From NCBI GenBank assembly GCA_951406725.2, contig OX597822.1, forward strand, positions 80,290,001 to 80,354,000: a stretch of 64,000 nt of DNA. The letters run 5' to 3'. A model generated the notes under the pieces. That model was not told the DNA's origin. It made no database searches and saw only the letters and a list, made by a program, of their open reading frames with translations. The translations under genes were made by a program, and so were the position numbers. Shown piece by piece: positions 28,431 through 33,974 of this stretch; position 1 is the first letter of the stretch; each line of letters opens with the position of its first letter. Source of the DNA: Octopus vulgaris (taxonomy: Eukaryota).

Positions 28431-28676
28431 AAATAAGATGTGACAATTATTCAATAGCCCAGATAAAACTCTGAGTTTCGGATGCCGAGGTGGAAATCCA
28501 CAACACCATCTCTTCGGTTATCTGGCCGATGGTGTTGTGGATTTCCACCTCGGCATCCGAAACTCAGAATTTTATCTTGGCTATTGAATAATTGTCACAT
28601 ATTATTTTACAGATAAATTTCGTTTATTTACATATATTGAGGTTTCTTTCTTTCTTTTGTTATCTTACCATTTTTA

Positions 28677-28680
<4 letters not shown>
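28428..28680. mobile_element. Penelope/retrozyme-like fragment forming an 83-bp inverted repeat (28428-28510 / 28528-28610), inserted in (TA)n
   Basis: Arms differ at 3 of 83 positions with a 17-nt spacer. Contains a hammerhead motif. (TA)n on both sides. Confidence 0.7.
28459..28525 (-). ncRNA. Type I hammerhead ribozyme motif (U4C variant)
   Basis: Minus strand: CCAGATAA-[CCGAAGA]-GATGGTGTTGTGGATTTCCACCTCGGCATCC-[GAAA]-CT-CAG-AGT-T-TTATCTGG. Stem I is a perfect 8 bp, stem II is long and interrupted, stem III is ACT/AGT, and the cleavage triplet is GUU. Confidence 0.68.
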
Positions 28681-28714
<34 letters not shown>

Positions 28715-29036
28715 GATTAACTGTTGAACTGGACGGACGTCTATTTGTTTCTCTCCCGAGTCAGTAGCAAGCTACACAGCTTCAAAACTAACTGACCTTA
28801 AATATATATATATTTGTAACCACGTGTTTGCCTACAAACCCGTAAGTACGTTTTCATTTAACTACAAATTGTTATATACACCTGTTTTTCTTTTAATATC
28901 CTCAAACAACCAAATAATCAAAAACTCACACCCTTAAGAGAGAACATTTATATATATATACACTTCTTTAACTCCCAAGAAAGAATATATATATTTTCAA
29001 AAAATCAAAAGGAAAACAAACAAAAGAAAAACAAAC

Positions 29037-30157
29037 ATGACTAACTTGCAGGCCTGCAACAGACGAAATTGGTCTGATAACGAAATTGATGTTTTAATAA
29101 ACACATGGCTCTCTCTTTCCCAAACAGAAAATCTAAATGTCTTGTGTTTGAATGAGATTGCCGAAAAAACATCACAAGTGGTCAACACACGATCCGTCAA
29201 ACAGATTCGTAGCAAGTTGAAACATATCGAAGTATCTTTCAAACTGATAAGAGGCCATTATGAAAAGCTTTTACATATTTTCACAGTTCAAGAACAACAA
29301 CAGCTAGAAAATCAGCAGCCACACAACAACAACAACAGAATGAGCCACTCCTGGTTCCCAGCACAATGGCTGACCCTGACATCGGTCATGCACAACAACA
29401 ACAACAACAGCCACAGCAAAAAGAACAACAACAGCCACTCCTCAACTCTAGCTTACTAGACGATTCACTAAATGCCAGTATCTTTTTACCGCTCTCACAG
29501 CAACCACCACAATTATCATCATCATCATCACCACCGATGCCACCATCGTCTTCTATCACCAAAAATACCAACAGAAAACCAAATAAGAAACCACTGCCCT
29601 CTTCCCCCACATCACCACCTCAATACTACTGCAGTAACAAAAACTTAAAGAAACATAGGAAGCAGAATGCGCCCCCCACGGCACAAACAAGAAATCCCCA
29701 AATATGCCGCTATTCACTGCGCCAGAGACTCTGCACAAATAGTGACTGCATCTTCACGCATCTACCTGGCACTAGACGCACTACCGGCCAAGGCCAAAGC
29801 ACGCATCCCACAATAACATCAACACCACCAAATAGTAAATCGAAATTCAAAACACACACAACTCGGAGTCCCAAAATCTGCCGGTATTCCCAACGTGAGA
29901 GAACATGTCTACTGAGTGACTGTCCCTTCACTCATCTTCCAGGGACCCGACGCACAAACAGAAACGGGGCCTCAAGCCAACACACAAACCTGAATAACAA
30001 TAAAAATAGAAACACACCATGCTGCAGTAATGCTGGTCCAGTCTTTTCAGGAAGACACAAAAACAACAACAACAAAAGTGGAAACTACAACCCTATCCAA
30101 CAGTGCAACCACACCTCCAGCCAAAAACTGCTCCCTAAGCAGGAAAATTCTTTTTAG
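29037..30157 (+). CDS. LINE ORF1 protein (Myb/SANT-like domain, polyQ/PS linker, two CCCH zinc fingers), split by a 1-nt deletion at about 29322
   Basis: RNWSDNEIDVLINTW...EIAEK..NTRSVKQIRSKLKHI is a trihelix/Myb-SANT-like pattern. Restoring CCA CA(G) CAA CAA joins this frame to one encoding CRYSLRQRLCTNSDCIFTH and CRYSQRERTCLLSDCPFTH (C-x8-C-x4-C-x3-H), each followed by LPGTRR. Confidence 0.8.
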
Positions 30158-33100
30158 CCATGTTGAACATGGCAAAAGAGATACACAAAAACATTCTAGC
30201 CATCACTCAACACCATCCTATGCTATTACCCCAGTGCACCAATTCCCCACATTGCTGCCACTAACACACACAAAAAATCCAAGCCCCCTGCAACAGTCAA
30301 AACCAGCCACTACACTAACCTCCACATTCCTACTCAATGCACAAGGTGTCAGCCCTTCCATCAATGCACAAAAATGGAAGGTCCAATTCATTGAAGACTG
30401 GGTTGGTAACCATTCACACCACATCCCTTTCTTCATTCTCACTGAGACCCACCTTGACAACTCCCACTTGGAAGCCGAAGTGAGAGTGAAGAATTTCACA
30501 ACCATCCGCGCGGATCGTATCGGCAGGAGGAAGGGTGGAACTGCCATTTTCCTGCATGATTCATTTACGGCAGATGGAAATAGTATATTCTCCAACGGCT
30601 ACTGTGAATCAGTCACCGTGCACAACAAAGCCAATGATCTGACAGTGATTGGGCTCTATAGGCCGCCCCAAACACCCATACTGTGCTTTAAAGAATGCCT
30701 CAACAGCATTAAGTGCTTCATTCAACAGTGCCATTCTAGCAACATACTCATGATGGGAGACTTCAATCTACCCTGTGTTGACTGGACTACAAACTGTTTG
30801 AAACCAAGCACTCCCGCCTCAACCGCTGACAAAGAAGCAGCAGAGTCACTTTTCGACTTTACGAATGAGTTTTTCTTGTCCCAACTTGTCCTTGCACCAA
30901 CAAGACATTAGAACATTTTGGACCTAGTGTTTAGTAACCACACTAACACTATACATAACGTTACAGTGGAAAAAACCCTTCTTTCAGACCATGACATCGT
31001 TCTCTGTAACATGAAATTCCACCAGCCGAAAGCTAATCCTAGTGACCTTCCTCCAGCCCACCCATTTGACAACATGGATCTCCATAAAGCCAACTGGGAT
31101 GCAATCAGGAACGAGCTATCAAATGTTGACTGGTCCTTTACACATACACACATCTCCACCAACCATAAAACATCTTGGCAGATCTTTTTAGACACCGTCA
31201 CAGACATATGTGCAAAACACTCCCCACCAAGACCTGTGAACAAAAAGTGCAGAATCCCCCAAAACAGAAAAACCATTATCAGAAAAATAAAAAGAACAAA
31301 CAAAAAAATTAACAAACTAAAGTACTGCCAACAGCAACACACACATTCGACGGCTATCGCACTGCTTGAATCCAAAAAATATAACCTCCAACAATGCATG
31401 AAGTCCCTCATCAATAACCAAAGATCAGCTGAGGAGAAGTGGGCCATTGAAAAAATCAAACTCAACCCCAAAGTGTTCTTTTCATTTGCGAGGAAACGCA
31501 GGGTCACTGTCTCCACTGTAGGCCCTCTAATTGACGAAACTGGCACTCTCCAAGATAATGCCAAATCCATGGCCGAGATACTGCAGAAACAATACTGCTC
31601 TGTTTTCAGCAATCCTGATATGGCCGATCTGGGCTGTATCAGTGATGTCAACCCCCAACACACTATATCGGACATAACGTTTAGTGCCCCTGATGTCTTA
31701 GCGGCGATAAACGAAATAAAACACAATTCAGCAGTAGGCCCCGATAGGTTCCCTGCTTGTGTCCTGAAGGTGTGTCGACACCAACTTGCATCTCCCCTTG
31801 CTAATCTGTGGAGAAACTCACTGGATGCTGGCTATATTCCAAAAAACCTTCTGTCCCAGTCTGTTGTCCCAGTTTTCAAAAAGGGAAACAAGTCCCTTGC
31901 AGTGAATTACCGTCCGATCTCACTCACCTCTCATATCATCAAGGTATTTGAGAGGGTGGTGAGATCTCAAATAACCCAATTTCTGGAAAGCAACAGACGG
32001 CTGATCTCCAACCAACATGGGTTCCGTAATGGAAGGGACTGCCTAACGCAGCTCCTGCATCACTTTGAGGACATTTTGAGAGCTTTGGGAGAGGGCTCCA
32101 ACACCGATGTCATCTACCTTGATTTCAGTAAGGCCTTCGACAGGGTCGATCACAAGATCCTATTGAAAAAACTATCCAACATTGGTGTCTCTGGAAAGTT
32201 ACTGAAATGGATTAAGTGTTTCCTGACAGACAGATCTCAACATGTTGTAGTTGAAGGGGTAAAATCAAGCCCAGCCAAAGTCAGTAGTGGCGTTCCGCAA
32301 GGCACTGTGCTGGGCCCACTTCTTTTCATCATTTACATTAATGACATTAATGACATCATCAAGCACAGCAACATAAAAATCTTTGCAGATGACTCCAAGC
32401 TACAGAAGGTCATAAATGAGGCGAGTGACCGGACATGCCTTCAGTCAGATCTACTGGCTGTTATCCAATGGGCAGAAAAAAACAATATGCTGCTGAACGA
32501 GGATAAATTTGAGCTAATCCACTTTGGAAAAGAGGATGCCCTGAAACTCCCATACTCCCTTCCTTCAGGTGAAACTCTCGCGGCGTCCAACAACATCAGA
32601 GACTTGGGAGTAATTGTGGACAACAACGTAAGCTGGGCCACTCGTATAAACACCAAAGTTGACATGGCCCGCAGAATGTGTTCCTGGATTCTCAGAACTT
32701 TCCAGTCGAGAGATATCCACACCATTATCCTTCTCTTCTCCACTTTTGCCCGACCCCACCTTGAATACTGTTGTCCACTGTGGTCTCCCCACACAATACA
32801 AGGTATCATAAAAGTCGAAGCACCTCAAAGGGCAATCACAAAAAAGATAGATGGCATGACAGGCCTCGACTATTGGGGTCGACTAGAAAAGCTAAAACTC
32901 TATTCTCTCCAACGTCGTCGTGAGCGCTACATCATCTGCATGATGTGGAAAATATTCCATCAGCATTGCCCAAATGATGTTGGCATCACCTTTAAGGTAC
33001 ATCCAAGGCTTGGGCCCCGTGCCATCCGCCCAAAACAAAAATCGCACTCTCATCTCATAACAACAATACGGCACAATTATTTCACCTCAATTGGCCCCGC

Positions 33101-33269
33101 TCTCTTTAACATTACACCAAAACACATTAAAACAGAAAGTGACCCTATAGGGTTCAAGAAGTCTTTGGACAGATTCCTTCAAGAAATCCCGGATAAACCC
33201 CCTACACCCGGATATGTCTCTGTAAACAATAACTCTCTACTTGAGTGGGCCATAGTGCCCAAATTCTGA
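30030..33269 (+). CDS. LINE ORF2: apurinic-like endonuclease + reverse transcriptase; one in-frame TAG at 30909-30911; true start uncertain
   Basis: The two track ORFs (30030-30911, 30918-33269) share a frame. APE motifs: LNAQG, LTETHL, GLYRPP, MGDFNLP, PTR-x-*-NILDLVFSN, SDH. RT motifs: QHGFR, YLDFSKAFDRVDH, GVPQGTVLGPLLF, FADD, DLGV. CR1-type C-terminal LEYCCPLWSP and LYSLQRRRERY. Confidence 0.95.
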
Positions 33270-33974
33270 CTTGAAAGACTTCACCAGGTGGTGCTATTAA
33301 GTTAGACATGGCCTGAGCCAATAATGGCCGAAACCTATCAAAGTATCAAAGTATATATATATATATATACATATATATAATCGAGTGTTTGTATATACTT
33401 ATATATATATATATATATCATAATTTATGTCATGGTATATATATGTTCCCAAAATGAATGCTTAGGAAGAATATTTGTATTACGCAGATGATTGCATGTT
33501 ACAGGCTAATCAGCTATAACGGTCACTGATAAGAGGTATAAAGTTGGAAGATATAATGTCAAATTATTTGAAAATGTTTCTGTTGAAAGTTACGCTTATA
33601 GAGAAAGATTGTATAAGATTAATGTTACGCAAACATTGTGTAACAACCACTGAAAGACATGTATAGATGTTACTAATAATTTTCTATAAATACTTTCGTC
33701 CTTTGTTTCTTATTTCTTTCAGTCTGTTTTACGCGTAAAACCTACGTCTGGATCACAAACAGGATATAAATAATATTCAATATATTATATAGACTGTAGA
33801 AATGAGACAATCTAAGAGCTTGCAACGTCGTGTACAACACTTCGAGCAGTGTTGTTTTTAGTTTTTGACTAACTTCTGCAGTCTGTTTTGAAATTCAGTG
33901 ACTGAAAATTTCTGTCTGTCTGTTTCTCTGTCAGTATGTCTGCAGGTACATACATAAATGAACAGTTATATACA

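Follow-up and report, generated by a model that had tools for sequence, protein, structure and literature searches.

How the second open reading frame (ORF2) of LINE retrotransposons is translated is debated, and the worked cases, L1 and SART1, use reinitiation. The question is raised again by the window analysed here, a stretch of 64,000 nucleotides of the 2.8-Gb Octopus vulgaris genome, in which a T-run and a palindrome stand at the ORF1/ORF2 junction of a LINE copy. The original prediction proposed that this T-run is one T short of a retroviral-type slippery heptamer and that the ancestral element would express ORF2 as an ORF1-ORF2 fusion by -1 ribosomal frameshifting. The copy belongs to a family named family A here, and its parts are listed below (positions in the window, strand, feature).

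28712..33351, +, nearly complete insertion of family A, a young APE-type LINE, into a (TA)n microsatellite, delimited by siblings, ends and flanks
29037..30264, +, ORF1, 409 aa in intact 6-T copies (ORFs of copies L055, L048 and L052)
29061..29255, +, Myb/SANT-like domain at the ORF1 N-terminus (PF13837, E-value 1.2e-05, slightly below the curated cut-off)
29702..29935, +, two CCCH-like zinc-finger repeats in ORF1 (an internal repeat with weak PF22683/PF14608 matches below cut-off)
30030..30032, +, ATG lying in the ORF2 frame in 5-T copies only
30136..30138, +, TAA closing the ORF2 (-1) frame, 4 codons upstream of the putative slippery site in 6-T copies
30151..30156, +, putative slippery site, U_UUU_UUA in the source form and one T short in the window copy
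30157..30173, +, family-specific palindrome (hairpin) with zero spacer, its 5' half able to pair with the 3' UTR
30157..30264, +, C-terminal tail of ORF1, in which FL precedes a helix-like motif; the segment also encodes the ORF2 linker
30151..33269, +, ORF2, consisting of linker, APE endonuclease and reverse transcriptase (RT) (Pfam PF14529, PF03372 and PF00078)
31884..32612, +, RT domain in ORF2
33270..33351, +, 3' UTR with a motif common to families A, B and C (B and C being sister families), then an 8-nt repeat tail

When the window copy was compared with 29 sibling loci, 98-99.6 % identity was observed over up to 3.3 kb, and family A is young. Its copies include 5'-truncated forms with a fixed 3' end and tail, a trait of APE-type LINEs, and the APE endonuclease and downstream RT in ORF2 matched Pfam above cut-off. 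TA repeats follow the tail in 20 of 20 copies and precede the 5' anchor in 11 of 11; in the window they flank the element at 28680-28711 and 33352-33380. A long inverted repeat, possibly a MITE, lies at 28450-28610, just 5' of the LINE and outside the part shared with the siblings. Two lesions are private to the window copy: one base is lost near 29324, where its ORF1 is broken, and a stop stands at 30909-11.

In this copy the ORF1 frame ends prematurely with AAT TCT TTT TAG (T-run 30151-30155, TAG 30155-57) and the palindrome occupies 30157-30173, both as described in the original prediction. When exact genome matches to the family A junction with 5, 6 or 7 T were counted (other run lengths and substituted copies being left out), 207 of the 312 had 6 T, 99 had 5 T and 6 had 7 T. 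The contig sets of public sequencing runs gave 6 T in 8 of 8; such contigs drop rare variants, so this result shows the majority only, and the RNA nature of the runs is a guess, none being on record as RNA. Older family A copies (81-97 % identity, including three at 81-86 %) also have 6 T. The sixth T is thus no longer hypothetical, and U_UUU_UUA is the majority state. Our first DNA search gave 5-T copies only, because it ranked matches by identity to the window. The ATG at 30030 is in the ORF2 frame of the assembled sequence, as had been pointed out. Since the source form has 6 T rather than a 5-T consensus, the frame starting at this ATG is merely a short one, with the TAG of the T-run as its stop. 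We also observed runs of 4 T or 7 T that put ORF1 and ORF2 in one frame (the copy at G000:C4:51755789-51758894, and the 7-T copies L125-L130 and L147), and one natural single-frame copy of this kind has an open frame of 1416 aa.

The ORF1 of 6-T copies starts with the ATG at 29037, ends with the TAA at 30262 and encodes 409 aa. The window's third frame likewise runs to the TAA at 30262-64, where ORF1 had been expected to continue, and the intact copies agree. ORF2 is then the -1 frame, into which a -1 slip would lead as anticipated, and it opens after the TAA at 30136-38, 4 codons before U_UUU_UUA. The late first Met noted earlier was also found: the next Mets are at 30750 and 30753, the first of them 200 codons past the heptamer and beyond an invariant endonuclease Asn (30336-38; present in all 10 sequences aligned).

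Families B and C were found in the Octopus vulgaris genome by a search with a metagenome protein, and their endonucleases are 72 % and 60 % identical, respectively, to that of family A over the aligned part. Among 80 metagenome loci, ten scored far above the rest. When a quick tree of 60 rows of unnamed elements was drawn, with 23 loci of short or partial match left out, these ten and families A, B and C formed one branch (SH-aLRT 100). Endonuclease identity across the two sister families and nine of the metagenome relatives ranged from 30 to 72 %. A search of genome contigs gave 21 loci, all distant, a search with L168 gave matches of family B type by frame length, and no relative was found in the viral contigs searched. 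The ORF1 homolog search found nothing; the Myb/SANT-like domain is also present in the ORF1 of family B.

All nine metagenome relatives with upstream sequence (L161-163 and L165-170; L164 is without it and so outside the junction count) have an ORF1/ORF2 overlap of 250-340 nt in the -1 frame. The heptamer is G_GAU_UUU in six and U_UUU_UUA in three, 1-16 codons after the frame opens. Each relative is a single contig, which counts against the frameshift reading, and as L162/L163 and L165-167 are near relatives, the nine amount to about six independent lineages. Family B has U_UUU_UUA and a -1 overlap of 124 nt. In the case of family C, 17 of 20 stretches were without the endonuclease start, one of the remaining three was truncated, and two were real junctions, one with 6 T and one with 5 T; stretch L279 was a chance motif match and was left out of the count. 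The sole intact family C junction has U_UUU_UUA followed by C, and its ORF2 frame opens one codon earlier. Altogether, upstream sequence is available for 12 clade members, and every one of them has an X_XXY_YYZ heptamer in phase where the ORF2 frame opens. No Met precedes the endonuclease Asn in 8 of the 9 metagenome relatives, and an AUG in the ORF2 frame ahead of this Asn occurs in families B and C and in L170; the latter counts against the frameshift reading, as does the 5-T state of a third of the family A matches. Over the ORF1 tail, families A and B share 19 of 30 residues in the ORF1 frame and 16 of 30 in the ORF2 frame, and FL-anchored tails are also seen in the relatives. Family B copies such as L150 also contain, within ORF1, a third frame that stays open over ~230 codons up to the TAG of the T-run.

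The junctions of 11 loci (L162 being omitted as a near-copy) were compared with a null in which the ORF1 amino acids were fixed and each element's own codon use was applied. The probability of the heptamer in the U6A lineages was 0.010 (A), 0.013 (B), 0.060 (C) and 0.017, 0.023 and 0.081 (L168-170), and for five loci with G_GAU_UUU it was 0.24-0.29. The probability that the -1 frame is open through the overlap was 0.024-0.34 per locus; upstream of the overlap this frame contains 1-13 stops. The product of the least favourable value per major branch was ~3e-5 for the heptamer and ~1e-4 for the open frame, values whose independence is lowered by the shared ancestry of the lineages; at a protein identity of 30-45 %, however, saturation of the synonymous sites is to be expected. 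The junction heptamer and the open frame are unlikely to occur by chance. The Leu codon after Phe is CUN where G_GAU_UUU is present and UUA in 6 of 6 cases where it is absent. Thus, the heptamer shifts by one codon with its phase kept, and this pattern points to selection on the nucleotide heptamer itself rather than to a by-product of the x-F-L motif of ORF1.

Because a slippery heptamer is kept at the ORF overlap, the copying enzyme of these elements is likely made by a one-base backward slip. The fusion proposed in the original prediction is supported by features that recur across the clade, namely the heptamer in phase, the overlap in the -1 frame and the lack of an early Met, and we consider it probable, from sequence comparison, that -1 ribosomal frameshifting yields an ORF1-ORF2 protein of about 1410 aa. 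Most ribosomes would complete ORF1 and release the 409-aa protein including its C-terminal tail. A fraction would slip by -1 at U_UUU_UUA and make a protein of ORF1 residues 1-374, linker, endonuclease and RT that is without the tail. Slipping would fix a low ORF2p:ORF1p ratio, as for Gag and Gag-Pol, and the window copy would be a dead daughter that lost one T.

The alternative known from other LINEs is termination-reinitiation near the ORF1 stop, AUG-independent if needed, which the available text of PMC2881922, PMC10275272 and PMC5009743 describes for L1 and SART1. In its favour, an AUG is found 7 nt upstream of the ORF1 stop in family B, with CUG at the corresponding position of family A, and L170 has an AUG at -4. 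However, reinitiation leaves unexplained why the -1 frame is open for 75-100 codons back to the heptamer. In family C and in loci L168, L169 and L170, the ORF1 stop is located within the first endonuclease motif, with the invariant Asn codon following after 2 nt. In L161, L163 and L165, no AUG or common near-cognate codon was found from -60 to +30 nt of the stop. An AUG overlapping or adjoining the stop occurs only in B and L170 (2/11; none in family A), and UGGGA, the TURBS motif, occurs within 90 nt before the stop in 1 of 11. We concluded that reinitiation is unlikely here.

Less probable still, and in our judgement very unlikely, is polymerase slippage, in which RNA polymerase or RT adds a U and the resulting 7-U RNAs or 7-T copies give the fused protein. 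The T-run is indeed indel-prone (7 T in 6/312 copies of family A and 3/98 of family B), and HIV RT produces 1-3 % indels at U6A in vitro according to the available part of PMC5737442. Against this, the G_GAU_UUU lineages have four U only, the codon phase of the heptamer would be irrelevant, and no 7-T contig was present in the 8 runs, whose contigs drop rare forms.

It is highly improbable that 5 T is a functional type whose ORF2 starts at ATG 30030 or is reached through a +1 slip at UUU_UAG, even though it has 99 copies and the 1091-codon ORF2 frame with ATG 30030 is open in 9 of 14 5-T copies fetched. The +1 shifty-stop or ATG-30030 reading was dropped once the 6-T counts were known. When an ORF2 tree of 50 sequences was drawn (33 5-T, 14 of them chosen by identity to the window, and 17 6-T; 5 of 55 were dropped as partial), 5 T was unclustered, with 15 changes against a shuffled mean of 14.2 and 409 of 500 shuffles as low. 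Thus, 5 T arises per copy. The T count varies even among copies whose ORF2 is identical, the conserved ORF1 tail is cut off by 5 T, and 5 T is found in only 4 of 98 family B copies and in none of the run contigs.

As for the origin of the 5-T copies, base loss at 12 other runs of 6-7 bases amounted to 10 of 440 copy-sites, and of 98 family B copies, 87 carry 6 T at the U6A run, 4 carry 5 T and 3 carry 7 T (5-T excess in family A versus family B, Fisher p 1.3e-9). Generic homopolymer error was rejected on these grounds, and T loss is specific to the family A context. Slippage during retrotransposition is a plausible source, and the indels known at the U6A run of HIV (PMC5737442, available part) are likewise seen at that of family A. 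The 5-T share in family A, 32 %, is far above the 1.7-2.6 % omissions of HIV RT in vitro at U6A given in the available parts of PMC5737442 and PMC5737552. Context-specific sequencing error may also account for 5-T calls.

Least probable of all is splicing, in which UUUUUUAG as a 3' splice site would join an upstream start to ORF2: a pyrimidine run with an immediate AG is present in A, B and L168-170, but family C has no AG within 12 nt, the AG of the G-type lineages is in another phase, and the junction is unspliced in the run contigs (guessed to be RNA), with no joint or loose end there, rare forms being missed by such contigs.

If -1 frameshifting operates, a stimulator might be expected, since the -1 signal described in the available text of PMC3542737 consists of X_XXY_YYZ (GGA tolerated), a 5-9 nt spacer and a structure. 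The hairpin of family A is real (z -3.8, first 40 nt). It has zero spacer, as the original prediction had cautioned, and the palindrome is lost in B, C and older A copies. For these reasons it was rejected as a general stimulator, a role that is unlikely; of the predicted pair, the heptamer is kept in the relatives and the hairpin is not. An alternative stem from about +5 in family A gave z -2.5, and none is common to the lineages. Local folds outside family A mostly gave z from -1.3 to +1.7 (L161 -2.7 and L168 -2.0, one window each). A simple scan for H-type pseudoknots never rose above shuffles, 7-60 of 60 reaching the score. The heptamer G_GAA_AAU (30142-48), separated from the downstream hairpin by 9 nt in 6-T copies, was also rejected; it is absent from B and C.

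We also analyzed pairing of the junction with the 3' UTR, omitting L161, L163 and L168-170 (3' ends missing or frames broken). In family A the pairing was the best of all windows (-19.7 kcal/mol), in B it was third or fourth, and in C and L162 it was outside the top four. The 3'-UTR motif is unchanged across families while its junction partner differs. A motif of ~28 nt (window 33288-33315; L150 and L140) is identical in A, B and C, the tails being different, and is likely the RT recognition signal. No conserved 3' stimulator was found by folding, pseudoknot and 3'-end scans across the clade, which counts against the frameshift reading. Shifting may occur at a low level at the heptamer alone, or its stimulation may depend on a protein.

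Both heptamers of the clade are in viral use, U_UUU_UUA in HIV and G_GAU_UUU in pea enation mosaic virus, as given in the available text of the frameshifting review PMC5009743, which also lists HeT-A and TART under non-LTR elements and gives unconventional initiation as the presumed mode for the ORF2 of mammalian LINEs. The clade shares its heptamer and -1 overlap with HIV and other retroviral and LTR gag-pol genes, and a nucleic-acid-binding ORF would likewise be fused to an RT ORF. Unlike gag-pol, it is non-LTR and has an APE endonuclease, no protease match and no conserved stem-loop or pseudoknot found 5-9 nt downstream. The Dictyostelium elements TRE5-A and TRE3-A are stated to require a -1 frameshift for ORF2 in the available part of PMC5911963; that of PMC5006619 holds nothing further on it. 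These are APE-type non-LTR elements like family A, but they are amoebal and target tRNA genes, whereas family A is in an animal genome, inserts in (TA)n and has an ORF1 with Myb/SANT and CCCH-like domains. L1 and SART1 resemble the clade in having a bicistronic LINE RNA with ORF2 dependent on ORF1 translation. In the excerpts available on them, they make a separate ORF2p by reinitiation or unconventional initiation, whereas in the clade ORF2 lies in the -1 frame and shares 120-340 nt with ORF1.

Judged from the style of its ORF2, family A presumably belongs to the CR1 group. It shares with CR1-group LINEs an ORF2 with APE and RT, 5' truncations and a short-repeat tail. Its ORF1 domains match no ORF1 type described in the available part of PMC4120745, and it differs from Zenon, which has no ORF1 and a poly-A tail (PMC13343379, available part), in its 409-aa ORF1 and 8-nt repeat tail. 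The word 'frameshift' is absent from the main text of the CR1-group and gastropod LINE surveys PMC4120745, PMC13343379 and PMC11203168. A search that covered subscription papers and Repbase reports thinly found no publication describing a conserved -1 signal in LINEs of animals, and an older mention is possible. As far as sequence can tell, the conserved recoding-type junction is real and would represent a known mechanism in a new setting. If this is true, ORF2p would be born fused to an RNA-binding protein, which would change models of RNP assembly and cis preference, and consensus libraries and gene callers would truncate the ORF2s of the clade at an internal Met. As family A is young and is represented by intact copies and by contigs from the guessed-RNA runs, the frameshift claim is directly testable.

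A wider reading, which we put forward tentatively and hold to be possible rather than probable, is that Gag-Pol-style -1 frameshifting may be common and old in CR1-group LINEs. It would include swaps between G_GAU_UUU and U_UUU_UUA at neighbouring codons with the mechanism kept, a lineage with A_AAA_AAC, and a cost of the U6 run, the element's own copying machinery dropping a base in a third of family A insertions.

A second, more distant LINE group has a -1 overlap of ORF1 and ORF2 with A_AAA_AAC in an A-K-N motif (loci L179, L187, L227/L234/L237, L228, L230/L236, L231 and L235). In seven loci tested, the probability of the heptamer given the amino acids was 0.07-0.25 and that of the open frame 0.002-0.021. 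In its tree neighbours L199, L185, L194 and L229, the heptamer is absent or not judgeable. In L178 and L219, whose ORF1 ends appear esterase-like by eye, U_UUA_AAC is located near the ORF1 stop, in phase with ORF2.
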